Assembly: GCF_039649255.1 (NCBI RefSeq)
Contig: NZ_JBDIYD010000003.1
Location: 203,900-235,899 of the forward strand
Reading direction: 5' to 3'
Source of the DNA: Dechloromonas sp. ZS-1
GTDB taxonomy: Bacteria; Pseudomonadota; Gammaproteobacteria; Burkholderiales; Rhodocyclaceae
DNA: 32,000 bases
Shown here: piece after piece, positions 8,172 to 31,357 of the stretch
How the letters are laid out: each line of letters begins with the position of its first letter
Position numbering within the stretch: the stretch's first letter is position 1
Position numbers and translations under genes: made by a program
The notes under the pieces: generated by a model
What the model was told of the DNA's origin: nothing
The model's input: the letters and a program-made list of their open reading frames with translations, nothing else
The model's database searches: none

Positions 8172-10923
8172 GTCCCGCTTCCTCGCTGATAAACTCAAAG
8201 GCCTGCTCAATCCGCGCCCATTCAGCCTGTGCGGCCAGCGCCCGGAAGCGCAGACCACCCCAATCCTCCGTTCTGGCCAGGGATTCGATTTCCTTCATCA
8301 GTTCGCCCAGACCGTTGGCCCCGACGTTGAAGGAACTCGATTTCAGCGCATGCGCCGCCTTGGCCAGTGCTTCCGTATCGCCCCCGGTAAAGGCTTGCTC
8401 GAATTTGCCCATTTCCCGCTCAGCCGCACCGCGGTAGGCTGTCAACAGTTCCGCCACGAGACCATCGGCCCGCTCCGGTGCCAAGGCACGAATCCGGTTG
8501 ATCGCGGCCTGATCGAATACCGGTGGCAATACGTTGGCGGCAAAAACAGCCCCACTGATCGCCGGCTCGCTGACGGCCGCATCCCGACCGCCGCCCCGGC
8601 GCCGCTCCAAGGGCAGCCAGCGGCGCAGCACCTGGATCATTTCATCGCCGGTGTAGGGCTTGCCAAGGTAGTCATCCATCCCCGCCGCAAGACAGCGATC
8701 CCGGTCGCCTTGCATCACATTCGCCGTCAAGGCCACCACCGGGACATGCGCCCCCCTCGCCGCTTCCTGTTCACGCAGACGGCGCGTCGCCTCGAATCCA
8801 TCCATTCCCGGCATCTGACAATCCATCAGGACCAGATCAAACGCCCCATCTGCCAATGCCTGCAGCGCCTCTTCACCATCCATGGCAATGGCCACATCGA
8901 GTCCGGCCCGCTCCAGATAAGCGCGTGCCACCACCAGATTGCTTTCATTATCCTCAACCAGCAGAACATGCCCACGCAAACGGGGCACCTGGCTCTCCTC
9001 CACCGGCGCAGCGGCAGCATGTACCTCACTGTGCAGTACGGCATCCACCGCCTTGAACAACTGTGCCTGACGCATTGGCTTGGCCAGACAGGCCGCCACC
9101 TGCAAGCCCTCCTGCTCCTGACGCCCGATCATGGCCACCGACGATGCCAGCATGATGATCCGCGTTCCTGCCAGCCCCGGCTCGCCACGGATGGCCCGCG
9201 CCACCGCCAGACCATCCAGGCCGGGCATGGCCATATCCAGCAAGACCAGATCGTAAGGCTCCCCTTCCGCAACCGCCGAACGCAAGGCGGCCAAGGCGCT
9301 CACCCCGGAATACAGGGCGTCGACCAACCAGCCACGGCTGCGCAATTGGCGCGCCATGATGTCCGCACTCAAGGCATGGTCATCCACCACCAACACCCGA
9401 TGCAGCGCGCCCTCGCGGAACAGGGGCACGGCCTGTGAAAATTCCCGGTTACAGCGCAACGGGATACAAACGCTGAAGGTCGCCCCCAGCCCGGGTCGGC
9501 TATCCAGCAGCAATTCACCGCCCATCATTTCCGCCAGTTTGCGGCAAATGGCCAACCCCAGCCCGGTGCCACCGTATTTGCGACTGGTGGAGCCATCTGC
9601 CTGGGAAAAATGCTCAAAAACCCGCGCCTGGGCCTCGAGCGGAATCCCGATCCCGGTATCCCGCACACTCAAGGTCACCGGCAGGATCGCCCCGCGCGCC
9701 TGCCCGAACTCAAGGCGCAGCACAACCTCGCCCTGCTCGGTAAATTTGACTGCATTGCTGAGCAGGTTCGCCAAAATCTGTCGCAACCGGAGCGCATCGC
9801 CCTGCACGCTCAAATTACCGCCGGCCGGAATATCCGCCACCAGTTCGAGCCCTTTTTTATGCGCCAGATGGATAAACAACTCCAGCGACTCTTCCAGCAG
9901 TTGGCGCAGGTCAAACTGCACCACTTCCAGCTCCAGTTTGCCGGACTCGATCTTCGAAAAGTCCAGGATGTCGTTGATGATCCAGAGCAGATGCCGACCA
10001 GAGCGCTCGATCGCTTCCACGTATTGGCGCTGTTCGGGCTGCAGGTTCGAAGCCAGCAAGAGATCCGCCATGCCGAGCACGCCATTCATGGGCGTCCGGA
10101 TTTCATGGCTCATGGTTGCCAGAAACTCGCTCTTCGCCCTGCTACCGGCTTCTGCGGCATCCTTGGCTGCGCGGAGTTCGCGGGTCCGCTGCTCGACCAT
10201 CTGTTCCAGGCCATCCAGATGACCGGAAACGCGCCGGTCGCGTTCGCGAATGCGGCTCAGCATGCCGTTCAGACTCTCGACCAGCAGGTCGATTTCGCGA
10301 ATCCCCGTCACCCGCGGATTAACGCGCATCAGGCGCCCTCCCGTTTCAGCCAGGTCATCGGCCAGCTGGCGAACGGGGTGGAGCAGACGATGCACGCGCA
10401 ACCGGAGTAGCCCACCACCACACCAATGCACGATAGCCAACGTCAGCGCGGCAAAGAGCAGATAAATCAGCAGGCCGTCGTAAAAGGGCTTCATCCACAG
10501 ACGCAGCATCGCGACATGCGTTCCGGCATCGGGAATGACAACAGTACTGGAGAGCACGACAAAACGCCCCTGCATGGCGAAATCCGGTGTGTTATATGGC
10601 TGCAGCACGGGGAAACGTCTTTCCGGCATCCGCGCCACATCCAGCACACGCCGCCCGGCAGGGTCGTAGAGCGCAAACGCATCCACCTGCTCCATGGCCG
10701 CCAAGCCGACCAGCAAGGCCCGCTCCGAACCGCGCGGATCATAGACAGAGAGTTGACCGTAGGCATTGGCCCAAAGCACCAGTTGCCCCCGCCCCGCTTC
10801 AATCAAATGCTGCCAGGCCAGCACGCCCCCAACGGTACCACCGAGCAATAACAGGCAAGCCGCCCCGATCAACGTCCAGCGTTGGGCAATACGACTCAGG
10901 AGGGCGACGATCGAGGTGCTCAC
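8164..10923 (-). CDS. hybrid sensor histidine kinase (TM sensor, HAMP, HisKA, HATPase, two REC domains, Hpt)
   Basis: 919 aa with a GTG start. H-box [10 protein letters not shown] and G-box GGTGLGL. Two receiver domains ([17 protein letters not shown] and [18 protein letters not shown]). C-terminal Hpt motif [12 protein letters not shown]. Confidence 0.9.
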
Positions 10924-19799: not shown

Positions 19800-19832
19800 A
19801 GATTAGAAGGAGTGACGCAGGCCAACCATGTA
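19800..19832. repeat. 33-nt tract identical to 26837..26869 (stop codon and last 9 codons of both porins)
   Basis: AGATTAGAAGGAGTGACGCAGGCCAACCATGTA is present at both loci. I read and compared both copies directly. Confidence 0.9.
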
Positions 19833-20825
19833 GCCGGTGTAATCAGCGCCGTTACCGTTGGTGGTGCCGTTGTTAACCGGGTTGTTGTAGAAAGCGTAGT
19901 TCACGCCATCCTTGTTAGCCAGGTGGCTGTAACGAGCATGCACGATGGTGCGCTTGGAGAGCTCGTAGGTGTAGACAGCGGTCCACAGGGAAGCGCCGGA
20001 GTTAGCAACTTCACCAGCTTCGGTCTTGGTCTTGGCGGCCTTGGCGTATTCGAGACCAACGGTGTTCTTGCCGAAGGACTGAGCAACACCCAGGGAGAAG
20101 GCGTTACGCTTCAGGTAACCACCAGCAACATCGGTGTCAGCCTTGGTGTTGTCGTACAGAGCGGTCAGCTTGGTAGCGGTCGGCAGGGTGTAGACAGCAG
20201 CCAGACGGTAGACGCGAGCGTCAGCATTGTCGTTGCCCAGGGTACCAGCGGCGGAGGAATTCACAGCCTTGTGGTAGCCAGCACCAACGAACAGCGGGCC
20301 ATTGTCGTACTGACCAGCAACTTGGAAGGAACGGGCTTCAGCTTGGTCAGCACCGTTCTTCTGGGTTTCGCCGTTAACGTAAGCAACGGTACCAGTGAAA
20401 CCGCCAAAGGACGGGGAAACGTAAGCAACAGCGTTCTTGGCGCGGTCGTCAGCACCAGACTTAACGCCCTTGATGGCGCCGGTCAGGGAAGCGGTGGTAC
20501 CGAAGCCAGCAGCAGCCGGAGCCAGTTCAACCTTGGCACCGAAAGCGCGCAGCGGGTGGGTCAGGGTACCAGCAACAGCGGTACCGAAACCACCGGTCAG
20601 GCCCACGAAGGAGTCACGGTTGTTGTCGATAGCGCCGGTGTTGTCCGGAGCAACGGTGCTTTCGATCTGGAAGACAGCCTTCAGGCCGTTACCCAGGTCT
20701 TCCACACCCTTGAAGCCGATGTAGGAAGAGTTGCTGTCCAGGCGGCCAACGGTCGACTGGTTGTTGGACGGGGTAGCAGCGGCATTGCCAGAGGACTTAA
20801 CAAAAGCTTGGCCCAGATCGACCAC
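19803..20825 (-). CDS. Gram-negative porin, paralog 1 (reading frame continues to ATG 20909 but is broken by TAA at codon 3)
   Basis: Beta-barrel porin with C-terminal YTGYMVGLRHSF and codon usage like highly expressed genes. The tracked ORF starts at an internal GTG and lacks the signal peptide. In the same frame upstream is ATG CTT TAA ACG AAG ATT ATT GCT.. encoding ML*TKIIALALAAVAGSAAA, homologous to the signal peptide of paralog 2. Confidence 0.85.
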   Translation of the reverse strand: MVDLGQAFVKSSGNAAATPSNNQSTVGRLDSNSSYIGFKGVEDLGNGLKAVFQIESTVAPDNTGAIDNNRDSFVGLTGGFGTAVAGTLTHPLRAFGAKVELAPAAAGFGTTASLTGAIKGVKSGADDRAKNAVAYVSPSFGGFTGTVAYVNGETQKNGADQAEARSFQVAGQYDNGPLFVGAGYHKAVNSSAAGTLGNDNADARVYRLAAVYTLPTATKLTALYDNTKADTDVAGGYLKRNAFSLGVAQSFGKNTVGLEYAKAAKTKTEAGEVANSGASLWTAVYTYELSKRTIVHARYSHLANKDGVNYAFYNNPVNNGTTNGNGADYTGYMVGLRHSF

Positions 20826-21260
20826 ACCGTAAACGGTGACGTTGGTTTGAGCAGCGGCGGAACCGGCGACAGCGGCCAGGGCCAGAGCAATAATCTTCGT
20901 TTAAAGCATGCAAAAATCTGTCCTGATGGTTTCTTATAGTGCTTTATTTTCAATAACTTATAAAAAATACGCACTACAATCCTTGGAGCTGAAAACATGT
21001 CAAACACGAAGAGAATTCAACTTTTACTTTAAAAGACCTCGTTTTTTTAATTTAAAAGACCAAAGAGATCGGTTGTTTGCGCTGTTTTTAGCTTACACCG
21101 CATAATCTACGTTAGCATAATAAAAATTTTAAACTATTGTTTTAATTGAATATTTTTAACATCAACCTGAGCAAAATCCGTTACCGGCAAAACACGTCCG
21201 GATTGTCATTTAAAGGATGCACTTCAGGGTAGCAGAAGCGGTGCAGCCCTTCTCCTACCG

Positions 21261-21281
21261 AGCGTCAATTTCCTTGACGCT
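21261..21281. repeat. 21-bp palindromic site AGCGTCA-N7-TGACGCT (copy 1)
   Basis: AGCGTCAatttcctTGACGCT overlaps the first base of the small-recombinase stop codon. Second copy at 25259..25279. Confidence 0.8.
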
Positions 21282-21850
21282 CAGACCAGTTCAACTGCAT
21301 TACGCAGCACACCTGGACGCAGATCAATGTAGCGTTGCGTCGTGGCCATATTGGCATGCCCGGCCAAGGCCATCATCACCCGCACGCTGACACCCTTTTC
21401 AGCCAAGTTCGTCAAAAAGCCACGGCGACCACTATGGCTGCTGGCACCGTCTAAGCCTGCTTGCTTGTAAATGCCGTTGACCACCTGCGTCAGCGAGTTG
21501 GCGGTGAAAGCGTCGCTGCGCTGACTGGCGAAGAGGGCCTGCTTCGGGTCCGCCACTGTTACGCCCTGCAGGTAGCGGGTAAGTTCAGCTCGCATGCGCT
21601 CATTCAGCAGCACCGTGCGACCACGCTTGCCCTTGGTTTGTTCTGCAGTGAGATTGATTTCGTCACGCACGCTGCCATCACTGGACACTACATCGCAGAT
21701 ACGAACCGCAGCCACTTCACCAATCCGCATACCCGCCAAGTGCGTGAGCAACAGGATGACCCTGTTACGCTTCGCATTCTTGGTTTTCGCTACATAGTCC
21801 AGCAGGCGCTGCAGTTCGCGCTCGTTCAGTGTTCTTGCATGCTTCGTCAT
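21281..21850 (-). CDS. small tyrosine recombinase, catalytic domain only (about 189 aa, FimB/FimE-sized)
   Basis: Start at MTKHARTL (ATG 21850). Catalytic signature R (AGMRIGE), K (TKGKRGRTV), H-x-x-R (HSGRRGF), H (LAGH) and Y (TQRYI). There is no N-terminal core-binding/SAM-like domain. About half of aligned residues are identical to 30785..31357 (by-eye alignment). Confidence 0.85.
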   Translation of the reverse strand: MTKHARTLNERELQRLLDYVAKTKNAKRNRVILLLTHLAGMRIGEVAAVRICDVVSSDGSVRDEINLTAEQTKGKRGRTVLLNERMRAELTRYLQGVTVADPKQALFASQRSDAFTANSLTQVVNGIYKQAGLDGASSHSGRRGFLTNLAEKGVSVRVMMALAGHANMATTQRYIDLRPGVLRNAVELV

Positions 21851-21886
21851 TTTCGCTTCTGGCTTTGATAATGAAATCGCGCATGC

Positions 21887-21897
21887 ATTATGTTTTC
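21887..21897 (-). promoter_or_regulatory. conserved GAAAACATAAT element (putative -10 region) upstream of small recombinase 1
   Basis: The identical 11-mer lies exactly 39 nt upstream of the ATG of both small recombinase genes (also at 31394..31404). Confidence 0.4.
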
Positions 21898-22160
21898 GTA
21901 TCGGCAACTTTCCTACCCCACTTTTTCGTTTCGCTCGACCATTAAAAATCAATGACTTAGCGCCACTGATAATATTTTGTGCAAAACATGCTCAGTCGTA
22001 TTTAGCCCGAAACGTGTGGCAAATCTGCCACTGCGATCGGGTCCGCGGCGAAAAACGCCCTGCTAAAGGCTCGTGCGGACACAGTCTGACATGGGTAACT
22101 GAACTTGGGCGAAAAGCGGGGGTTGGTCTTGCGGTGTGCGCCACAATGGGGAGTAAAGGT

Positions 22161-22181
22161 TTTATTACTTCAAGCAATAAA
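22161..22181. repeat. 21-bp near-palindrome TTTATTA-CTTCAAG-CAATAAA
   Basis: Degenerate copy of the perfect palindrome at 23527..23547. It lies 33 nt downstream of the 424-aa ORF. Confidence 0.7.
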
Positions 22182-22213
22182 ATGCAGCCCAGCACTCCCT
22201 ATATGTCGGATAA

Positions 22214-23488
22214 TTAACTCTTGGACTGTGCCGCCTTCTTGGCGCCCGACTTAGATTTTCTGGCTTTTTCAGCTGCTTTTTCGGCTCGCTTACGGTCTGC
22301 AACTATTTTCCCCTGGAATTCGGCGTTAGCCTTGGCAATGCGTGCCTCGCACTTGGCCTTGTTCTCTGCAGCTTTCTTTACTGCCTCGTATCGTTTAAGC
22401 AGCTGCTTGCTTTTTTTATCGGCCAAGTGGCGCTCCTCATCACGCCTGATATCGAACCACGGTTTGTGGCCTGCACGCTTGGCACTCTCGGTGATGTAAT
22501 CGAAAATCAGCCGCTCCAGTTGCTCCGTGACCGGGATCTGCAGCTGCAGTTCGAGTTGATCGAGTGGATCCTTGTGGGCCAGCACGAGGCAATAGCCCCT
22601 GTCATCGTTGCTGAACCGATGGCGGTTGCTGGAATCGAGCTGCACCCGGGCCACAACCGGTAAGCGCCAAAGCATCTGGTAGCTGGCCGCACGATCTGCT
22701 TGTTTGCCATCCGTGTGCAAAACGCCTGCATCAGCCTTGGCAACCTTTGCAAATGCATGGCGAATTTTCTCCAACCCGCCCATCTCGTCGACGAAGGCTT
22801 GGAAGCTCTTAGGCTCGATCTCGTAGTTGTATGCCAGCACAAAGGAGCGCGAATAACTCAGCAGGGTCTTGTCCTTGGCATCCTTGAACAAGAACTTCAG
22901 CAGCACCGTCGCCGTTGGTGTGTCGTAGTGGGTCGTCACCCCATCGATGGTCTTCAGCACGCTCCTCAACTCGTCAAACACGCTGAGCGCTTGCTCTGAG
23001 TTGCAGATGGCACGGTAAAGAGCGTAGGCGTCTGCGAGGATGGTGAAGAGTTTTTTACGGGTCTGCGTTTCGAAGGCCCGCACCCGCTGACGCAGCACCT
23101 TGGCGGAGGTCATGAGCTGCCAGCGATCAGCCAGCTCATGAAGCTCTCGCTGGGACAGCCTCACCCCTTCCTTGAACCTGTCGCACTCCGGATACTGATG
23201 CGCCAGTTCGCTTTGCACCAAGATCGGCTTCCCTTGCTGCTCGCGCATGCGGATATAGGCGGCGTCAGCTTCGGCATCGAGCTTTGCCTGTGCCTCGGCG
23301 GCTGCTTGTTTGGCAGCTGCCCGCTTATCAGCATCGACATACCACTGTTTCTGCTCGCGGAACATCCGCTCCCGATCCATTGGCGGCCTACCTGTTCGCT
23401 CAAACAGCCCTGCAAAACTGGCGATCTTGGCATCGACCTGTCGGTAGATTTCCTCGTCCGAGGGGATGTAGGTGGCATCTGCAGACAT
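22214..23488 (-). CDS. hypothetical protein with Lys/Ala/Glu-rich termini; distant paralog of 29100..29879
   Basis: 424-aa ORF. The central region aligns by eye with the 259-aa protein of module B: LFTILADAYALY/LYAILAECYAF, YDTPTATVLLKFLF/KDTPLMTRIVRAVF, FVDEMGGLEKIRHA/WIEQEGGVQEIRMS, YCLVLAH/CVLLATQ. Confidence 0.7.
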   Translation of the reverse strand: MSADATYIPSDEEIYRQVDAKIASFAGLFERTGRPPMDRERMFREQKQWYVDADKRAAAKQAAAEAQAKLDAEADAAYIRMREQQGKPILVQSELAHQYPECDRFKEGVRLSQRELHELADRWQLMTSAKVLRQRVRAFETQTRKKLFTILADAYALYRAICNSEQALSVFDELRSVLKTIDGVTTHYDTPTATVLLKFLFKDAKDKTLLSYSRSFVLAYNYEIEPKSFQAFVDEMGGLEKIRHAFAKVAKADAGVLHTDGKQADRAASYQMLWRLPVVARVQLDSSNRHRFSNDDRGYCLVLAHKDPLDQLELQLQIPVTEQLERLIFDYITESAKRAGHKPWFDIRRDEERHLADKKSKQLLKRYEAVKKAAENKAKCEARIAKANAEFQGKIVADRKRAEKAAEKARKSKSGAKKAAQSKS

Positions 23489-23526
23489 AACGGCGGTATC
23501 TCAGTATCCTGGATAAAGGCCACCAG

Positions 23527-23547
23527 TTTATTGCTTAAAGCAATAAA
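23527..23547. repeat. perfect 21-bp palindrome TTTATTGCTT-A-AAGCAATAAA
   Basis: Lies 39 nt upstream of the 424-aa ORF start, so it is operator-like. Confidence 0.8.
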
Positions 23548-23740: not shown

Positions 23741-24303
23741 GTTAGATTCGGATTGCTCGGTCTGACCATGCCCAGTGTAGGGCATCGTGGTCCTGTTATT
23801 TTGTTGAGTTCCTCAAAACTCGGGCTATCACACAGCTTGCTCACGCAAGCGAAGGCAGGTTCTGCGATCATCCTTCATTACGTGCTGTCCTTACGCAGAT
23901 CGTTGCAGCCATAGCCAAGCACACCAACGACCTTGTGGGTTTACGTCGTCCCCACTCACTTTTTTCACGCATCGCTGCGCTACCAACCACGACAACATCG
24001 CAAACGGAACTGCCACAGAGGGGCGTCGTTTCAGGCATCCAGCCATCAGCTGGGTAGTGCGATGAGGCGAACAGCAAGAAGTTCGTTTGCTTACCGTCAC
24101 ACATCAGAACGGATTTCGCGGCACAGTAACAGTCGGCGTGCCAACCTTCGCCTTGCTTGTATGTTTTTATTTATGCAGGCTGATATGAAAAGCCGTGAAA
24201 TCCGGCGAAAAGCCATTCAAATCCCATGCTTCTCTCGGTTGCCCATGCGCCGAGGCCGACCATACAGTTGTTCTACCCGGTAACGACAGCCAAGGACAAC
24301 GCA

Positions 24304-24744
24304 ATGAGCACCCTTTCCAATCTCAAGTTGATTACCAGCAAACGCCAAGCCTCGGGCGGTGCCGTGGCCCATCGGCGTGGCAAGCTGGCAGAAAAGATCG
24401 ACGAGCAGATCGCACTGATCACCGCGCAGCAAGAGGGCCGCGTCTACGCCCCAAAGAAGACCAAGATCATCGTGAACAAGGCCACTGGTCAACGCGGCAG
24501 CATCGAGGTTATCAAGCGGGTCAAGGAATGGTTTTGGTACGGCGAAGGCGGCAAGATCCATCTCAACATCCGCTACGGCAGCAAGATCATCGAACTGGCC
24601 AAGGGGAAAAATGCCATCGAGGTAGCCGACACCAAGGAACTGCTGGATACCCTGGCCTTGATTCGAACGGCGGTCATGGCTGGCGAGTTGGACAGCCAGA
24701 TTGAAGCCACCAGCGAAAAACTTCGTGCCGTATTCACCAGGTAG
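24304..24744 (+). CDS. hypothetical protein
   Basis: Start at MSTLSNLK (ATG 24304, AAGGA 9 nt upstream). The sequence is plausible and globular (KRVKEWFWYGEGGKIHLNIRYGSKIIELAKGKNAIEV). I recognise no family. Confidence 0.6.
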   Translation: MSTLSNLKLITSKRQASGGAVAHRRGKLAEKIDEQIALITAQQEGRVYAPKKTKIIVNKATGQRGSIEVIKRVKEWFWYGEGGKIHLNIRYGSKIIELAKGKNAIEVADTKELLDTLALIRTAVMAGELDSQIEATSEKLRAVFTR

Positions 24745-24778
24745 CCCAAAAAGGATAACTACAACAAAGGGAGAGACC

Positions 24779-25138
24779 ATGCGGCTATTTGAATTTACCA
24801 ACGCGGAAGAACAACTGGCGCTGCTGCGAACCATCATTGACAACACATGGCGGGCCATCGAGCAACAGGCCCAGCAACAAAGGCAGGCCGCCAGTGAGAC
24901 AAAGACAAAAACTGCATCGAAACCCCGTAAGGGCAAAGGTAGCAAAGAAGCAAAGTCAATCACACCGCCGCGCAGCCGGTCTGCTCCACCACCGTCTCCT
25001 GCTCAGCCTGTTAAAAATTTGCCGACCAACACGAAGCCCATATCGCCGCCTCAGCGTAATCGCGTTGGCAACATCAAGCCTTTTGGCGCGAAAACGCAGT
25101 TTTCCGGCGCTGATCAGGCTGCAGCAAGCCATCGATGA
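24779..25138 (+). CDS. hypothetical protein with a Pro/Ser/Lys-rich low-complexity tail
   Basis: Start at MRLFEFTNAEEQ (ATG 24779, GGGAGAG RBS). The N-terminal 40 aa look helical and the rest is low complexity. Confidence 0.5.
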   Translation: MRLFEFTNAEEQLALLRTIIDNTWRAIEQQAQQQRQAASETKTKTASKPRKGKGSKEAKSITPPRSRSAPPPSPAQPVKNLPTNTKPISPPQRNRVGNIKPFGAKTQFSGADQAAASHR

Positions 25139-25258: not shown

Positions 25259-25279
25259 AGCGTCATTTTTATTGACGCT
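25259..25279. repeat. 21-bp palindromic site AGCGTCA-N7-TGACGCT (copy 2)
   Basis: AGCGTCAtttttatTGACGCT lies 22 nt upstream of the integrase ATG. Confidence 0.8.
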
Positions 25280-25300: not shown

Positions 25301-26587
25301 ATGACACGCAAGACCCCACACACAGCGCCGACTGCCACCTACCAGCAGGTGTTCGAGCAGTGGCAACGTTCATCGACCAAGCGTCGTATGACCACCGTTG
25401 TGGACTATCAGAAAGTTTTCGATGCGTTTGCCAGCTTTGTCCAGCACAAGGACTTGGCAAGCATCGAGAGGAAAGATGTGCTGGCCTTCCGCGATCACTT
25501 GCTGACGCTGGGGCAAAGTGCCGTAACCGCTAATCATAAGGTGGGCATTCTCAAGGGCATTTTCAGGGTCGCTGTGGAATACGAACAGATCCCCAACAAT
25601 CCCGTAGCCGATGTGCGTTCGATAGGCACGCAGCGGCAAAAAGCTCGTGTGGCCTTTAGCGCCGATGATCTCAATCGACTATTTCAGTCGGAGGTGTTCA
25701 CTGCTGGCCTGCGTCCCAAAGGTGGTGGCCGAGATGCGGCTTACTGGCTACCGTTACTGGCACTATTTACTGGGGCGCGAGTTGAGGAGTTGGCGCAGCT
25801 GTTGGTTTCCGATGTCAGGCACGAAGAGGGACTGGGGCACTATCTCAATATCACCGACGAAGCTGCACATGCTCAACTGAAAAACGCAGCGTCCCGTCGT
25901 CGCATTCCGCTACACACCGCTGTGCTCGATTGTGGTTTTCTGGAGTATCTGGCTCGATGCAAGCGCCCCGGATTGCTGTTTCCTGATCTGCGCGCGAACT
26001 CACGCCGCAAGTTGGGGGGCTACTTCAGCACGTGGTTTTCAATTTATCTGCGGCAGAAAATGGGCATCCACGATGCTCGTAAAGTCTTCCATTCGTTTCG
26101 CCATACCTTCAAAGATGCCTGCCGAGCCGTGGGCATCGAAGAGGAAGTGCATGATGCGCTGACCGGCCATACGGGTAATTCAGTCAGCCGGCGCTATGGC
26201 AACGATCAGTATCCGTTAGAACCGCTGTTCGAGGCCATAAATCGGCTTGAGTTTGCAGGGCTTGATCTCAGCCATCTTTACACCCGGCCGGTATCGCAGA
26301 AACTGTCGATGAATGAGCTCAGGATGATTTCGGCCTATCACGGCATCATCGTGGCTTTTCCTACGCCCAAAACCAGGCGTAGCAGTCAGCCCTTCGTGCT
26401 GGCAATGTGCGATGGGCTCCAAGCTGGTTTCGATATCGCTGCCAACAAACCCATCTTCGGCGAGTTACCGCGCAACAAGCAGATGCTGGTCAATGCGTGG
26501 GTGGAAATACACAAGGAAGAACTGGTGGCCAACTGGCACGCTGGGCAGATCACGGGCGAGTTTTTTAAACTGGACCCGCTACGCTGA
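25301..26587 (+). CDS. tyrosine integrase (phage integrase family) with a C-terminal DUF4160-like extension
   Basis: N-terminal SAM-like/core-binding region, then a catalytic domain with R (TGARVEE), H-x-x-R (HSFRHTF), H (TGH) and Y (RRYG). The last roughly 90 aa (ISAYHGIIVAF..GELPRNKQMLVNAWVEIHKEELVANW..KLDPL) resemble DUF4160. Confidence 0.9.
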   Translation: MTRKTPHTAPTATYQQVFEQWQRSSTKRRMTTVVDYQKVFDAFASFVQHKDLASIERKDVLAFRDHLLTLGQSAVTANHKVGILKGIFRVAVEYEQIPNNPVADVRSIGTQRQKARVAFSADDLNRLFQSEVFTAGLRPKGGGRDAAYWLPLLALFTGARVEELAQLLVSDVRHEEGLGHYLNITDEAAHAQLKNAASRRRIPLHTAVLDCGFLEYLARCKRPGLLFPDLRANSRRKLGGYFSTWFSIYLRQKMGIHDARKVFHSFRHTFKDACRAVGIEEEVHDALTGHTGNSVSRRYGNDQYPLEPLFEAINRLEFAGLDLSHLYTRPVSQKLSMNELRMISAYHGIIVAFPTPKTRRSSQPFVLAMCDGLQAGFDIAANKPIFGELPRNKQMLVNAWVEIHKEELVANWHAGQITGEFFKLDPLR

Positions 26588-26607
26588 ATGTCGTTCAAAA
26601 CGACAAA
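26587..26607 (-). repeat. 21-bp site AATGTCG-TTCAAAA-CGACAAA (family TGTCG-TTTTGAA-CGACA, inverted spacer)
   Basis: Overlaps the last base of the integrase stop codon. The spacer is the reverse complement of that in sites at 29817, 29916 and 30764. Confidence 0.75.
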
Positions 26608-26746
26608 CTGCGGGCAGCGTGATACAGGCGGGCGGCGCAAACTTGCAACAGGCCCCCTACAAACGCTGATCGCTTGAGGCCAAAGGCTCGGGCTGCTGGG
26701 CTGGGCTAAAAAGGCGCTATAGACGGCTGCAGGTGCTGATTTGCTT

Positions 26747-26767
26747 GATGTCGTTTTAAACGACACT
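26747..26767 (+). repeat. 21-bp site GATGTCG-TTTTAAA-CGACACT (same family, variant spacer)
   Basis: Read directly. It lies 160 bp from the previous copy, and the two flank a GC-rich 140-bp spacer. Confidence 0.7.
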
Positions 26768-26786
26768 TTTTCAACAGCACCATAGC

Positions 26787-26820
26787 AAACAGCCACCCGA
26801 AGGTGGCTGTTTTGGTTTCT
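26787..26820. terminator. terminator hairpin between the integrase and porin 2 (homologous to the porin 1 terminator)
   Basis: AAACAGCCACC-CGAA-GGTGGCTGTTT followed by TGGTTT. Position and loop match the hairpin 3' of porin 1. Confidence 0.55.
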
Positions 26821-26836
26821 AACTAAGTCTTAACTT

Positions 26837-26869
26837 AGATTAGAAGGAGTGACGCAGGCCAACCATGTA
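26837..26869. repeat. 33-nt tract identical to 19800..19832
   Basis: Same sequence at the 3' end of porin 2. Confidence 0.9.
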
Positions 26870-27994
26870 ACCGGTGTAGTTAGCACCAGCAGCATCAACG
26901 GTAGCAGCACCTTGGTTAACCGGGTTCAGGTAGAAATTGGTGTTCATTTCGTCCTGATTGGCCAGACGGCTGTAACGAGCATGCAGCATGGTGCGCTTGG
27001 ACAGCTCGTAGGAGTAAACAGCAGTCCACATGCTAACCTTGGTTTGGTCTGCGGTACCAGCATCGGTCTTGATCTTGCCGCTTTGTGCATATTCAACACC
27101 AACGGTGTTCTTGCCGAAGGACTGAGCAACACCCAGCGAGAAAGCATTACGCTTGATGAAGCCATCACCGCTAACCTTGGTATTGTCGTACAGAGCGGTC
27201 AGCTTGGTAGCGGTCGGCAGGGTGTAAACAGCGGCGAGACGAATAACGCGAGCGTCAACACCGTCGGCGGCAGCAGTAACCGGAGTCGCTTGGAAGGAGT
27301 TGTAACCCAGTTGCGGTTCTTTAGCCTTGTGGTAGCCAGCACCAACAAACAGCGGGCCATTATCGTACTGGGCAGCAACTTGATATGCGCGAGTATTCAC
27401 GTTTGCGTCAGCAGTTGCAGACGCAGCAGCATTGGTCTTTTGCTCACCATTGATATAAGCAACGGTACCCGAGAAACCGCCGAAGGACGGGGAAACGTAG
27501 GCCACTGCATTATTTGCACGGTTATCAGCACCAGTGTGCAGACCAGCAATAGTACCCGTAACGGAAGCCATCGTACCGAAACCAGCAGCAGCCGGGGTCA
27601 ATTCAACTTTGGCACCGAAAGCACGCAGCGGGTGAGTCAGGTTACCTGCGACAACAGTACCGAAACCACCGGTCAAACCAATATAAGCATCGCGGGTACC
27701 GTAGGTGTTGGTGGTGCCAATCACGCCAGTATCAGCAGCAAAACCAACTTCATACGTGAACAGTGCCTTCAGGCCATTGCCCAGATCTTCAACACCTTTG
27801 AAGCCGATGTGGGAAGAGTTGTTGTCCAGACGACCAACGGTGCCCTGTTCGGTGTTAGCAACGGAAGAGCCAGAGGACTTAACAAAAGCCTGACCCAGAT
27901 CAACTGCACCGTAAACGGTAACGTTGGATTGGGCGAAAGCGGCGGAAGAGGCAGCAGCAGCAACGGCCAGAGCAATAATCTTCTTCAGCAGCAC
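26840..27994 (-). CDS. Gram-negative porin, paralog 2 (intact)
   Basis: 384 aa with signal peptide MLLKKIIALAVAAAASSAAFA and C-terminal GYMVGLRHSF. It has a GTG start with no obvious Shine-Dalgarno. Confidence 0.9.
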   Translation of the reverse strand: MLLKKIIALAVAAAASSAAFAQSNVTVYGAVDLGQAFVKSSGSSVANTEQGTVGRLDNNSSHIGFKGVEDLGNGLKALFTYEVGFAADTGVIGTTNTYGTRDAYIGLTGGFGTVVAGNLTHPLRAFGAKVELTPAAAGFGTMASVTGTIAGLHTGADNRANNAVAYVSPSFGGFSGTVAYINGEQKTNAAASATADANVNTRAYQVAAQYDNGPLFVGAGYHKAKEPQLGYNSFQATPVTAAADGVDARVIRLAAVYTLPTATKLTALYDNTKVSGDGFIKRNAFSLGVAQSFGKNTVGVEYAQSGKIKTDAGTADQTKVSMWTAVYSYELSKRTMLHARYSRLANQDEMNTNFYLNPVNQGAATVDAAGANYTGYMVGLRHSF

Positions 27995-28366
27995 AAATCT
28001 GCTTTTAGGTTAGCAAATATTTTTCCTTTTAATAACAATTGACTAAATTAATTTCCGTTTGGTTTTTCTGCCAAAACATTACATTCCAAACGAATTTTTA
28101 TACCAATTTTTATGCTAAACGACTGCAAATTTCGGTATAAAAGGCTGAGCTTTTTTCGCCATTCACATAAAACGCTCAGTTTTAACTTGCCATCAAGCCA
28201 GAAAGACCAAATAAAAACCGAAGGCAACAACGGCGGCGCAATGGAATAAAATGCTTTGTTCTAAAGCGCCCTATCGGCTTTACCGCGCAAAATGGCCTTT
28301 TACATTTTTTTTGGGATGCAAAGATGCCCGCACGAAGCGGGCTATCTTTAGCAGCGCAGCTACTGA

Positions 28367-29023
28367 TCAGCGCAACTGACGTAACCCGGCACGCATTACA
28401 TTGTGCGCAACATTACGCACCGAGCCATTACAGCCGGCAATGATGGCTTGTAGTTGCGTGTCGTCTAAAACGACGTTGAGTTGAGCACAGATTTTTTGTG
28501 CGAATGGCATTAACTGCTCAGTTTTCGCCGCGTTCATTTCAACGAGCACGCACCGATCGAGTAGGCCACGCTCGATAGCCGAAATATGATTAGTGGTTAA
28601 AACGAAGATTGCTCGGTTCGTGTTCATTGCCGACTTCAGACTTTGCTGGGCCAACTTTGTTAAGTTATCGACCTCGTCGAGTATGAAGTAATGAAGGCTG
28701 CTGCTGTTAAGGGATAACACACTAAGCTGCTTTTTGATCAGCTCCATAACTTGCGGCCCAGTAAAGCCTTGCTGGCACCCAATGAACTCGGGTTGCATAA
28801 CCAAATCGTCATTATATTTAATCTGTTCAATAGCCTCTGGCAGCAGATTTGCCAGTGCTGTTTTTCCTGTTCCCCATACGCCATACAACAGGATGCCGCT
28901 CTTACCAAAAGCGGGCAATGGCTCCTCGCCGCTGATAATGTCGCAGATACGCTGCTTGGATTCGTCGTTTCCAAAGACAATATCGGCAACAGAGGTTGGC
29001 TGAAGATTATTGATATCAAACAT
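28367..29023 (-). CDS. AAA+ ATPase, RFC/clamp-loader-like, short form (218 aa)
   Basis: Walker A GVWGTGKT, Walker B FILDEVD, sensor-1 VLTTN, SRC-like DRC (LLDRCVLVEM) and sensor-2-like GSVRN. It lacks the C-terminal collar domain of clamp-loader subunits. Confidence 0.8.
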   Translation of the reverse strand: MFDINNLQPTSVADIVFGNDESKQRICDIISGEEPLPAFGKSGILLYGVWGTGKTALANLLPEAIEQIKYNDDLVMQPEFIGCQQGFTGPQVMELIKKQLSVLSLNSSSLHYFILDEVDNLTKLAQQSLKSAMNTNRAIFVLTTNHISAIERGLLDRCVLVEMNAAKTEQLMPFAQKICAQLNVVLDDTQLQAIIAGCNGSVRNVAHNVMRAGLRQLR

Positions 29024-29099
29024 AGTAATTTTCCTTTTAAAAGTGATTTCATTTGCACGGGCAGCAGCAGCTAAACTGCTGCCCGTTGCTATTTCGTTG

Positions 29100-29879
29100 T
29101 TAAGCTGCAGCCTTCATTGCACCGTCAGCTTCGTTTGCTGCCGTCAGTTCCTTTAGCGCCGCTTTGTGCTTTTCTTGTTCGCAGCCATACAACGACACAA
29201 ACGCTGCATTGACTGCTGTATTGCTGCGCAGCACAGCACGAACGGCATAGGTGCTATCGGCTTGTTGCGTTGCCAGCAGCACACAATCGCAGCCGACAAA
29301 ATCGCTGTCGCTGAGGCCAGACAATGCTTCCGAATGGACATTGGCCAGCACAGGCAAACTGTCAAAGTTTTGCTGTGCAATTTCTACTTTTTGCTTCGGA
29401 CTGACAAACGTGGCACTACGCGACATACGAATTTCTTGCACCCCTCCTTCCTGCTCAATCCAGTCAGCCAGGTTAGTTGCCAGAACTTGTTCGGCTTTGG
29501 CTGCACGCAGCACGAGTGAGTAGGTGCTGAGACGACGACGATCTATGTCGCCGAAAACGGCACGCACAATGCGGGTCATTAACGGCGTATCTTTTTTAAT
29601 GCGATAGCCGCGCTCTTTGTAGAATGCTTCGAGTGCAGCGCTGCGCTGTTTCGACTCAGTCACGCCCAGCTCGCCAGCGAAGGCGTAGCACTCGGCAAGA
29701 ATGGCGTAGAGCTGTTGATTGCTCGTGCGATAAGCCCCCTCTTCCCATTCCTTGCGGCTGCATTCCAAGCGGCTAAGCGTGTCGATTGGCGAATAGGTTT
29801 TTGAGGGAGCCACACGGGTGTCGTTTTGAACGACATTGGCGGTTTCGTTGGCTACGGACTTGATAACGATTGCTTCCAT
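29100..29879 (-). CDS. hypothetical protein, distant paralog of 22214..23488
   Basis: 259-aa ORF immediately upstream of the AAA+ gene and on the same strand. The by-eye alignment blocks are listed under the 424-aa ORF. Confidence 0.7.
   Translation of the reverse strand: MEAIVIKSVANETANVVQNDTRVAPSKTYSPIDTLSRLECSRKEWEEGAYRTSNQQLYAILAECYAFAGELGVTESKQRSAALEAFYKERGYRIKKDTPLMTRIVRAVFGDIDRRRLSTYSLVLRAAKAEQVLATNLADWIEQEGGVQEIRMSRSATFVSPKQKVEIAQQNFDSLPVLANVHSEALSGLSDSDFVGCDCVLLATQQADSTYAVRAVLRSNTAVNAAFVSLYGCEQEKHKAALKELTAANEADGAMKAAA
29817..29837 (+). repeat. 21-bp site GGTGTCG-TTTTGAA-CGACATT
   Basis: Lies inside the 5' end of the 259-aa ORF (codons NVVQNDT). Confidence 0.7.
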
Positions 29880-29915
29880 TTTTAACTCCTTTGTTAGTGA
29901 TTAAGTTGTTGTCTG

Positions 29916-29936
29916 AATGTCGTTTTGAACGTCGTT
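29916..29936 (+). repeat. 21-bp site AATGTCG-TTTTGAA-CGTCGTT
   Basis: Lies in the divergent intergenic region between 29879 and 30015. Confidence 0.75.
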
Positions 29937-30014
29937 CAGCACAGGAGTTATTGTCTTACTTTAGGGTAAAATGCGAGACTGACTACATATTCGACGCAAT
30001 TTACTTGATAAGAA

Positions 30015-30764
30015 ATGAAAAGCCGATTTCTTGCACTACACCCCTTGCTCGGGACTAAGAACAAGCCAGCAGCCCTACATTTACAAGAACGCAGTCCCTA
30101 TTACTGGTGGTGGGCGTATTTACGAAGGAATGCAGACTACTTGGCTTGCTGCGAAGCTGGTGGTGTCGGCGAACTGGGCTGGCTATATGCCGATTTCGGT
30201 GATGTGCGCACCGATGATTTCAGAAGCTGGTGGGGAGGCAGCGAGCAGCGCGGGGCCAAGCTTTTTGGGGAACAAGCCATTGAACATCGTCTGACTGAAA
30301 TCACCGAAGTCGACGTGTTTCAAAATCATAAGGACATCGGACTTGCCGTTATTTCAGTCAATCTGAATATCAACAAGCGGAAGTTGCAGCAGTATTTTGC
30401 TAATTGGCTGACAACAGTCCATAAAGGTAAGCCCGGGCGGCGCTCACTGGGCAAGGAAGGCGTTAGTAGCGCCAAGTATCCATTACATCGAAATTTCAGC
30501 CAGCATAATCTGCGGCTGATGCTGGCCGTCTATGATGCGTGGACAGCCAATCAGGCCTTACCGAAGCCCGAGCGGAAAACAATGTGGCAAGTGGGCGAGG
30601 CATTGAAGCTGGTGCCTACTGCGATTACCAAAGCCAGAGATACGCAAGCCGAACGCACCAACAAGCTCAACGTAATGACCGTCGCCGTCAGTCGGTATGT
30701 CAAACAGGCGAAGGCCATCATTGCCAATACGGCGAAAGGCCAGTTTCCCAACAGCAAGCTATGA
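30015..30764 (+). CDS. hypothetical protein with YYWWWAYLRRN motif (possible ICE-type transcriptional-regulator-like domain)
   Basis: 249-aa ORF. The N-terminal W-x-YLRRN-x-x-Y motif resembles the WEFLRRNPAY signature of proteobacterial DUF6499/DUF2285-type regulator-like proteins. This is from memory and unverified. The RBS is weak. Confidence 0.6.
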   Translation: MKSRFLALHPLLGTKNKPAALHLQERSPYYWWWAYLRRNADYLACCEAGGVGELGWLYADFGDVRTDDFRSWWGGSEQRGAKLFGEQAIEHRLTEITEVDVFQNHKDIGLAVISVNLNINKRKLQQYFANWLTTVHKGKPGRRSLGKEGVSSAKYPLHRNFSQHNLRLMLAVYDAWTANQALPKPERKTMWQVGEALKLVPTAITKARDTQAERTNKLNVMTVAVSRYVKQAKAIIANTAKGQFPNSKL

Positions 30765-30784
30765 ATGTCGTTTTGAACGACGTT
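30764..30784 (+). repeat. 21-bp site AATGTCG-TTTTGAA-CGACGTT
   Basis: Fills the gap between convergent stops. It overlaps the last base of the 249-aa ORF stop and ends 1 nt before the stop codon of small recombinase 2. Confidence 0.8.
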
Positions 30785-31357
30785 TTAAATCAAGTTGGCC
30801 GCTGCTTTGAGTTGCGACGGACTGCTGTAAAGATAGACTGCCGTTGTTGAAATACTGCGGTGCCCAGCCAGCGTCTTCAATATGTGGATCGAAGTGCCTT
30901 TGTTAGCCAAATTTGTGAGGTAACTGCGCCGCCCACTGTGACTGCTTGCGCCTTCAATGCCCACTTTGCGATAAAGGGAGTGGAAGAACTGAGCGAGAGT
31001 GTTGGCAGTAAAACCGCGCGTTGCTTCTTTCTGTGTGGCAAAAAGCACAGCTTCGATTGAAGTAGGTGGAACTGCTTTTACATAAGCAGCCAATTCCTTT
31101 TGTAGTTTGCTGCCCAAATACACCGTTCTGCTGTGCCGTCCTTTCGTCTGCTCTGCTGCCAAGTAAATTTCCTCTTTCACAGCACCGCTACTGTGCAGCA
31201 CGTCGCAGTAGCGTAGCCCCGCAATTTCCTTACAGCGCATTCCAGCCAAGTGCGACAACAACACAATGGCACGATTGCGTTCGGCGTGTTGTCGCGTCGA
31301 CACATAGTCTAATACGCGTCGCAGTTCGGTGTTGTCAAAAACTTTCGCTTGCGCCAT
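30785..31357 (-). CDS. small tyrosine recombinase, catalytic domain only (190 aa), paralog of 21281..21850
   Basis: AGMRCKE (R), TKGRHSRTV (K), HSGRRSY (H-x-x-R), LAGH and AVYL (Y). GGGAGGAAG RBS. Confidence 0.85.
   Translation of the reverse strand: MAQAKVFDNTELRRVLDYVSTRQHAERNRAIVLLSHLAGMRCKEIAGLRYCDVLHSSGAVKEEIYLAAEQTKGRHSRTVYLGSKLQKELAAYVKAVPPTSIEAVLFATQKEATRGFTANTLAQFFHSLYRKVGIEGASSHSGRRSYLTNLANKGTSIHILKTLAGHRSISTTAVYLYSSPSQLKAAANLI

Follow-up and report, generated by a model that had tools for sequence, protein, structure and literature searches.

The stretch analysed here (hereafter the window) comprises 32,000 nucleotides of Dechloromonas sp. ZS-1 (contig NZ_JBDIYD010000003.1, positions 203,900 to 235,899), and concerns a family of 21-bp palindromic sites that recurs among the genes of its right-hand part. 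The window belongs to a genomic island of this bacterium; the G+C content is ~62% over 1-20 kb of the window and ~50% from 21 kb on. Reading from the left, the sites are found among a large integrase of 428 amino acids (aa; 25301-26587, plus strand) with a C-terminal DUF4160/DhiT-like domain, a porin gene (porin 2; 26840-27994, minus strand), an operon on the minus strand encoding an AAA+ ATPase of the clamp-loader (RFC/DnaX) clade (28367-29023) together with a 259-aa protein (29100-29879), a 249-aa protein (30015-30764, plus strand), and a small tyrosine recombinase of 190 aa (small recombinase 2; 30785-31357, minus strand), which consists of a Xer-like catalytic domain alone, without a core-binding domain. 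The 259-aa protein, which matched no known fold, is the best candidate for a site-recognition factor. The 249-aa protein is highly conserved, carries the motif RSPYYWWWAYLRRN and belongs to no known family; its sequence is identical (100%) to that of a hypothetical protein of Dechloromonas sp. ZS-1.

Sites were searched with the pattern AATGTCGNNNNNNNCGACATT (AATGTCG-N7-CGACATT), allowing at most two mismatches, over the whole window and over 100 shuffles of it. Five matches were obtained, at 26587, 26747, 29817, 29916 and 30764, against 0.04 expected, and none of the 100 shuffles reached five; with one additional degenerate copy at 28457, the family of 21-bp 7-7-7 sites proposed in a first-pass annotation of this DNA is real. 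A relaxed pattern, TGTCGTT-N3-AACGACA with up to three mismatches, gave eight matches against 0.9 expected, all within 26589-30782, and no family-B copy (as the family is termed here) in the other ~27 kb of the window. The spacers had likewise been read correctly, being TTTTGAA at 29817, 29916 and 30764, the same spacer inverted (TTCAAAA) at 26587, and TTTTAAA at 26747; four of the six family-B copies of the window thus have TTTTGAA, one of them in inverted form. The arms reach into this spacer, each family-B site being a near-perfect palindrome of 17-19 bp, TGTCGTT-N3-AACGACA, and no conservation between the window copies was found beyond ~19 bp.

The copies occupy distinctive places, and those assigned by the first-pass annotation to the integrase stop, the stop of small recombinase 2 and the divergent intergenic region were confirmed. 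Site B1 (26587..26607, minus strand; AATGTCG-TTCAAAA-CGACAAA) is the copy with the opposite spacer orientation, and it shares the final base of the integrase TGA stop. Site B2 (26747..26767, plus strand; GATGTCG-TTTTAAA-CGACACT) lies 160 bp further on, with a bidirectional terminator (26787-26812) just beyond it and then the 3' end of porin 2; this porin gene is cargo between B2 and B3. The latter (28457..28477) is the degenerate copy, recovered by the relaxed pattern only, and is placed within the 3' part of the AAA+ coding sequence, where the minus strand encodes N-V-V-L-D-D; a possible weak copy with two mismatches (28963..28979) lies within the 5' part of the same gene, although the evidence for it is weak. 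Site B4 (29817..29837, plus strand) falls within codons 15-21 of the 259-aa gene, the minus strand reading AAT GTC GTT CAA AAC GAC (N V V Q N D), and B5 (29916..29936, plus strand) is found 99 bp from it, in the 135 bp that separate the divergent 259-aa and 249-aa genes. Site B6 (30764..30784, plus strand) has one base in common with the TGA stop of the 249-aa gene and ends directly before the stop of small recombinase 2, thereby occupying the whole gap between the two stop codons. A promoter scan near the sites gave nothing informative.

The genes surrounding the sites constitute a module that recurs in other bacteria. A locus scan restricted to one genome per species yielded 66 loci, mostly of freshwater Betaproteobacteria, and many metagenome contigs carried the module as well; related loci and contigs carrying the module are designated by L-numbers. 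The module comprises the clamp-loader-like AAA+ protein, the 259-aa protein and the 249-aa protein, usually accompanied by the 190-aa recombinase. In the related loci, the AAA+ and 259-aa genes are divergent from the 249-aa gene, and the gene of the ~190-aa recombinase is usually placed convergently right after the 249-aa gene, or just upstream. The module was found in Polynucleobacter, Limnohabitans and Methylophilaceae, which are abundant freshwater bacteria, and in Dechloromonas islands, near large integrases of unrelated families in different lineages and also near a tRNA-Phe gene or a fragment of another gene. The cargo of these islands includes methyltransferases, transporters, restriction enzymes, a CHAT protease and outer-membrane proteins. 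In the closest relatives (L088-L093) the 249-aa protein is 78% identical to that of the window, and 24 contigs with one identical 259-aa homologue have a single gene context throughout. In the literature library searched, no paper was found to contain the site sequences or to describe the module, whether by its domain names or by its combination of genes; a paper on Methylophilaceae islands has 'clusters bordered by integrase xerC' and does not mention these sites. The module is undescribed, and it is widespread in integrative genomic islands.

Scanning relatives for the motif, as the first-pass annotation had proposed, revealed conserved geometry and positions together with arm classes specific to each element. 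The window and at least five arm classes of its relatives share a fixed geometry, xxxGTCy-N7-y'GACxxx (GTC-N9-GAC), the arm sequence differing between elements and being concordant within each element at 2-6 positions. Two broad classes can be distinguished by their arms: TGTCG, TGTCC or TGTTG in class T, in which the spacer TTTWAAA is itself palindromic, and CGTC[ACG] in class C, whose spacers lack symmetry and are conserved in part (NGTTNNT, NAAAAAT). In the module, the site recurs at codons 14-20 of the 259-aa gene, or at codon 33 in the case of L027, and at the 249-aa stop beside the recombinase stop, with further fixed places at the 3' end of the AAA+ gene and at the large-integrase flanks; cargo genes also have sites at their 3' ends. 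In ~20 of 51 loci a palindrome is located at or over the 249-aa stop codon, its arms varying by locus and covarying with each other (GCGTC..GACGC, GTCGTT..AACGAC, GTCC..GGAC, GTTGTT..AACAAC), and about half of the related loci have a site abutting the recombinase stop codon. The B1 position is also occupied in L088, where the paired B1/B2 arrangement is kept; copies are present at the position equivalent to B3 in L032, L040 and L090-L093, and a good copy just upstream of the AAA+ gene of L040 lends weak support to the possible copy at 28963..28979.

The in-gene site provides evidence on the level at which these sequences are maintained. It encodes an NVVxND peptide that is nearly invariant in the otherwise variable, disordered N-terminus of the 259-aa protein, and in the loci keeping this motif its codons are fixed as GTC GTT TTA/CAA AAC GAC, even in A+T-rich genomes; the constraint therefore acts on the DNA, not on the protein. 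Polynucleobacter islands hold 6-11 copies per 20 kb, most of which lie 0-40 nt past the stop codons of cargo genes, the distance to the next start codon being loose and variable. In these islands the site is a perfect 15-bp palindrome whose copies differ at the central base only, and it therefore has almost no directionality.

Genome-wide dispersal as a generic repetitive extragenic palindromic (REP)-like element, a possibility raised in the first-pass annotation, is unlikely from the distribution of the copies, which are confined to 26.5-30.8 kb of the window and in relatives end at the island edge. The exact 17-mer occurred in 120 metagenome contigs, 15 with module proteins and ~100 as single-copy matches, while 9 of the 19 contigs with at least two copies carried module proteins. 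In viral contigs the 17-mer was matched 20 times, each time singly and never in a cluster, and these matches were judged to be chance or unrelated. Conserved composite units, each combining two or three palindromes of unlike class (a GTCCTT site followed after 46 nt by a GTCGTT site), were also observed at L026 3120-3180, L032 5615-5675 and L034 14033-14093. Those of L036 (11118-11220 and 20456-20568) are direct repeats 9 kb apart, and those of L041 (892-992 and 1331-1443) flank a 260-bp piece weakly resembling a tmRNA 3' fragment (Rfam E 0.097).

To identify the protein that tracks the site class, classes C and T were mapped on neighbour-joining trees of 19-26 loci per protein and compared with 2000 label shuffles. 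Site class was monophyletic on the 259-aa tree, with a single change, whereas shuffles averaged 5.5 changes and none of the 2000 reached one. Three changes were counted on the 249-aa tree (P 0.001) and five on the recombinase tree (shuffled mean 7.0, P 0.057), and co-evolution with the recombinase was thus not detected. The first-pass annotation had likened the sites to the core sites of tyrosine recombinases: the 7-7-7 geometry does hold in at least five classes, with an intact recombinase nearby, but the class does not co-evolve with that recombinase. The same picture emerges from Polynucleobacter elements of GTCGTT and GTCCTT type, between which the recombinase is 90-94% identical, the AAA+ protein 81-85% and the 259-aa protein 59-61%, compared with 91% for the 259-aa protein inside each type. 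Furthermore, L063-L067, which have no recombinase in reach, still repeat a palindrome of their own (GTTCCA..TGGAAC), present in L066 as AGTTCCATTTGGAACT at 9355 and 14042. Judging from these sequence comparisons, the candidate reader of the sites is probably the 259-aa protein, perhaps with its AAA+ partner, rather than the recombinase. The alternative put forward in the first-pass annotation, that the sites are operators of a dimeric repressor, agrees, when taken more broadly as binding sites of a dimeric protein, with the dyad symmetry and the covariation with the candidate 259-aa binder, with a caveat for linkage; its support is no weaker than that for recombination.

The 259-aa and 249-aa proteins have neither a name nor a Pfam family. 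At E <= 0.001, ~690 homologues (687) were retrieved for the former and ~690 for the latter, whose family profile finds 1107; a profile search for annotated distant relatives of the 249-aa protein returned unannotated family members only. Comparison of the two proteins with Pfam, NCBIfam and PHROG gave no match, bar one weak hint of PF20109 (Proteobacterial transcriptional regulator-like domain). The 249-aa protein has an invariant RSPYYWWWAYLRRNxDY at residues 26-46, which recalls the motif at the N-terminus of this domain, and the model was matched weakly by 1 of 23 family members (E 0.14). AlphaFold models of the 249-aa and 259-aa proteins were moderate (predicted local distance difference test, pLDDT, 79 and 70, respectively), and fold searches at a cut-off of E = 0.1 found no match in the PDB for either model and none in BFVD for the 259-aa model. 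Profile searches of PDB sequences gave spurious pyruvate-kinase matches only, and PHROG searches with neighbouring unknown proteins yielded nothing useful. No 249-aa homologue was found in phage records, and beside this phage search homologues were located on three Bradyrhizobium megaplasmids only, in remnants rich in insertion sequences (ISs).

The AAA+ protein is nearest to RFC small subunits and phage clamp loaders, and since PADLOC returned weak AAA+ matches only, no known defence system is present in the window. The small recombinases of 190 and 223 aa (the second belonging to a neighbouring element) have the complete R-K-H-R-H-Y catalytic set and lack an N-terminal DNA-binding domain; their best solved relatives are the catalytic domains of XerC-like proteins, XerD and XerA. 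Scores of 32.0 and 35.3 bits against the tyrosine-type DNA invertase model NF007370 (cut-off 221) and of 37.8-39.6 bits against the integron-integrase model TIGR02249 (cut-off 265) place them in neither group.

A further line of evidence concerns the places at which homology between loci begins and ends. A generic definition of palindromes proved too permissive (~1 per 100 bp, with 22% of end-points 'near' one), and the family-specific pattern was used instead: 33 homology end-points between loci lay at most 12 nt from a site, against 3.1 expected. In the comparison of L026 with L032, the AAA+/259-aa segment bounded by two sites is ~55-65% identical and both flanks 80-97%; identity switches to the base at the in-gene palindrome and again at the post-integrase site. 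Hybrid arms occur in L029 and L033. Two relatives have extra genes, compared with the window, inserted directly against B6: in L088 a gene of 108 aa at its right edge, in L091 one of 139 aa at its left edge. The sites thus probably act as module junctions and possibly serve as crossover points.

The reading that we favour, tentatively and at slightly less than even confidence, is that the palindromes are private recognition sites of the conserved island module, which would be read by the 259-aa protein, with sites in the control region of the module and with the sites doubling as points of exchange. A dimer of the 259-aa protein would read both arms, possibly after being loaded or remodelled by its AAA+ partner, and its binding to B4 and B5, 99 bp apart across the start codon of the 259-aa gene, could provide self-regulation of the module. 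The same bound sites would be the places of DNA exchange. The small recombinase itself carries no DNA-binding domain and may therefore be recruited to the bound sites, where it would bring about resolution or module exchange rather than a porin switch. That the small recombinase cuts at the sites at all, whether in this manner or in that of the first-pass annotation, is a possibility we hold with reserve, at somewhat less than an even chance. The most specific version, in which a tyrosine recombinase made of the catalytic domain alone is directed to 21-bp GTC-N9-GAC sites by a separate 259-aa specificity protein, loaded or remodelled by the AAA+ protein, for element-encoded module exchange and cargo capture in genomic islands of freshwater and soil Proteobacteria, is unlikely as a whole.

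Several observations weigh against this preferred reading. The correlation between site class and the 259-aa protein is partly forced by linkage, because one site lies within the 259-aa gene, and neither the 259-aa nor the 249-aa model, at pLDDT 70-79, matches a known DNA-binding fold. The asymmetric, partly conserved spacers of class C suit a strand-exchange region better than the spacer of a dimer's site. A neighbouring stretch of the window (element A, 21.2-25.3 kb) has class-A sites and a recombinase without a 259-aa gene. As for exchange, the inserted genes have one flanking site rather than two, unlike the product of a simple site-by-site recombination; ordinary homologous recombination through a short conserved block could place breakpoints at sites, and gene boundaries attract breakpoints anyway. 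Moreover, no rearranged isoform was seen among L088-L093 or the 24 contigs of one 259-aa homologue, all of which are consensus assemblies.

Among the other explanations, the sites might do no more than bind a module protein, much as operators or centromere-like sites bind KorB, ParB or MatP, in order to repress, insulate or organise the island, with the breakpoints as by-products of conservation. Perfect palindromes of 15-19 bp in most relatives would be expected of such sites, as would two copies spanning a divergent promoter and an early coding region; parS and matS sites are known within coding sequences, as are those described here. That site class goes with the 259-aa protein instead of the recombinase, that palindromes persist in recombinase-free relatives and that the arrangement is stable over 24 contigs would also be accounted for. 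Pure binding leaves unexplained the anchoring of sites 0-40 nt past stop codons at variable distance from the next start codon, the switches of homology exactly at sites with hybrid arms in L029 and L033, the oriented and partly conserved spacers of class C, and the conserved linkage with a catalytically intact recombinase gene adjoining a site, and we consider it possible, if somewhat unlikely. The first-pass annotation instead regarded the sites as core sites of the small recombinase, recombination between the copy at 26587 and those at 29.8-30.8 kb inverting porin 2 and the AAA+ operon as a switch. Besides the 7-7-7 geometry, this draws on four identical spacers of which one is inverted, on a recombinase gene that abuts a site, and on the occurrence of the three-gene block in both orientations relative to the recombinase gene across distant lineages. 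The proposed inversion found no counterpart in L088 and L090, the two related contigs with both a porin end and the AAA+ gene: L088 has the integrase, two sites, porin ends and AAA+ operon, and L090 the porin beside the AAA+ gene, all in the order and orientation of the window, so that the two orientations expected of a Fim-type switch were not both present in these contigs, which are consensus assemblies and not reads. At the homologous integrase-stop site of L088 the spacer is reversed with no other rearrangement, the site class does not follow the recombinase tree, the arms are just 7 bp long and the sites are palindromic in relatives; an inversion would also move the AAA+ operon away from the partner on its promoter side, and porin expression would not obviously benefit. 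Such a switch appears improbable.

A further proposal is that the sites are attachment or arm-type sites of the large integrase, marking the ends of tandemly accreted elements; sites do flank the large integrase in the window and in Polynucleobacter, and the multi-site units beside the weakly tmRNA-3'-like 260-bp piece and the direct repeats of L036 would fit. The same type of site is nonetheless associated with unrelated families of large integrase, most sites are internal to the element and some lie inside coding sequences, and the integrase junction in the P0194 element is an iscA gene fragment and not a palindrome, which makes this proposal very improbable. Most improbable of all is that the palindromes work as hairpins, whether as terminators, stabilisers of mRNA 3' ends, single-stranded DNA structures or a generic REP-like repeat. 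They do lie directly after stop codons and are common to convergent genes, and some copies have modest stability (z-scores -3 to -5), but just one of the six copies (26749-26765) fits the pattern of an intrinsic terminator. The stems are of 6-8 bp with three G-C pairs, a T-run is usually absent, strong canonical terminators adjoin several copies, two window copies fold no better than shuffles, and no Rfam family matched; the conserved copies early in the 259-aa gene and in the AAA+ gene are where termination would be harmful, and the absence of copies from the ~27 kb outside 26.5-30.8 kb also speaks against a general role of this kind. Two further candidates were rejected, a replication origin with iterons, as copies are single and scattered, and a chromosomal dif site, as the 11-6-11 layout is absent and copies are multiple.

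Several known systems resemble the sites in part. The pdif sites of Acinetobacter plasmids, of 28 bp (11-6-11), delimit Xer-dependent modules, the same module being found in different contexts (PMC6449649, PMC11705084). The likeness lies in short imperfect arm-spacer-arm palindromes bounding exchangeable modules and in the implication of a Xer-type tyrosine recombinase in both cases. However, pdif sites are read by host XerC/XerD with core-binding domains, while the recombinase here is element-encoded and has no such domain; moreover, the arms here are of 7 bp, the class follows another protein, and sites also occur in coding sequences and in a promoter region. Integrons likewise present cargo genes each closely trailed by a palindromic site near a tyrosine recombinase gene, but their attC sites measure 57-141 bp, have R/L boxes and act as folded single strands, and IntI has an extra domain, whereas the sites here span 15-21 bp and the cargo keeps its own terminators and runs in both orientations. 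A catalytic-only recombinase acting at these sites would resemble pdif modules and integrons in concept, with parts unrelated to either.

The IncP plasmid RK2 has 12 palindromic 13-bp OB sites, bound by KorB, at promoters and between and within genes, and in Bacillus a parS site lies inside spo0J. As in these KorB-OB and ParB-parS systems, one lineage-private palindrome is here repeated over a mobile element, within genes too, and is present in the gene of the putative regulator itself; by contrast, no ParB, KorB or ParA homologue is present here, the candidate binder has no known fold and a clamp-loader-type AAA+ partner, and the sites are tied to stop codons and fall on breakpoints of homology. 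In a lambda-type origin, four 19-bp palindromic iterons lie within gene O; a palindrome of ~19 bp conserved as DNA inside the gene of the suspected binder, with the gene of an AAA+ partner adjacent, is the common feature, whereas here the in-gene copy is single, without a tandem array or an AT-rich unwinding region, and other copies are scattered among cargo. Finally, FimB and FimE are tyrosine invertases of ~200 aa. Like them, the small recombinases are tyrosine recombinases of similar length (~190-220 aa) that have no DNA-binding domain at the N-terminus; they also lie near a gene for a surface protein, and they show weak NCBIfam matches to tyrosine-type DNA invertase models, far below the cut-offs; the differences are that at least six sites are present instead of two, that there is no promoter-bearing invertible segment, and that the second orientation was not observed.

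Element A, adjoining the family-B region on the left, has sites of a second family, AGCGTCA-N7-TGACGCT, which are of the same class as those of the L022-L024 elements. Site A1 (21261..21281; AGCGTCA-ATTTCCT-TGACGCT) abuts the stop of small recombinase 1, and A2 (25259..25279; AGCGTCA-TTTTTAT-TGACGCT) lies 22 nt upstream of the integrase start codon, their spacers differing from each other (ATTTCCT and TTTTTAT). Together they bracket, all on the minus strand, the genes of small tyrosine recombinase 1 (223 aa; 21281-21952), of an unknown 424-aa protein (22214-23488) and of an unknown 248-aa protein (24217-24963). Element A looks like a partial second copy of the element, from which the AAA+, 259-aa and 249-aa genes have been lost. 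A third, A+T-rich palindrome, TTTATTGCTT-A-AAGCAATAAA, is found at 22161-22184 and 23524-23547, flanking the 424-aa gene on both sides at ~30-36 nt from its stop and start. In the large integrase, the DUF4160/DhiT-toxin-like domain covers residues ~343-415, and the fusion is kept in L088 (6884-8212), ~68% identical as DNA.

The porin genes of the window are interleaved with the element copies. Porin 1 (19803-20939, minus strand) and porin 2 have the same orientation, are 76-93% identical across repeat blocks spanning most of the gene, and share their last 33 nt exactly. The start of porin 1 reads M-L-stop-T-K-I-I-A, with a TAA at codon 3 (20900-20908, minus strand) where relatives have Q or K, while the island-borne porin 2 starts with GTG; the resident porin 1 may thus have been inactivated, a sequencing error being the alternative cause of the TAA. 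The contig of L088 runs from a porin 5' end through an entire element to a porin 3' end, and positions 1-426 of L090 are also porin. From this arrangement in L088, the element would appear to exist as a circle or as tandem copies, each junction containing a porin, and integration may thus be linked to the porin or may replace one porin allele by another. In the P0194 contexts, where L095 was set against a 10,216-bp contig, one contig has the integrase end, which bears an iscA fragment of 64 aa, joined to the other end of the same element; a circle or a tandem array would give this junction if the element had integrated at the 3' end of iscA.

Two further observations concern the module itself. 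A distant version lies directly downstream of glmS in a Marinomonas metagenome-assembled genome (L066, 5052-13164) and comprises genes for a clamp-loader-like AAA+ protein, an unrelated 237-aa protein and a 249-aa homologue, without a small recombinase, in the same layout as in the window; an hhalign comparison of the 237-aa protein with the 259-aa family, whose position it holds, found no relation. In some relatives the module is interrupted by ISs (L095 10927-12411, L090 3419-4599), of which one truncates the AAA+ gene to 137 aa and another sits right after the 249-aa gene.

The sites expose a large unnamed gene module, with ~1100 members in the 249-aa family and ~690 in the 259-aa family. 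A private palindrome for each lineage, kept even in coding sequences, offers a clean and testable code of protein-DNA specificity, and the sites give a handle on module swapping in islands and on the pick-up of cargo such as porins, restriction systems and transporters. Should they be operators only, they would provide a useful but ordinary annotation of a common island backbone; if a separate specificity factor does recruit the recombinase, this would be a new mode of tyrosine-recombinase targeting, and possibly a tool.

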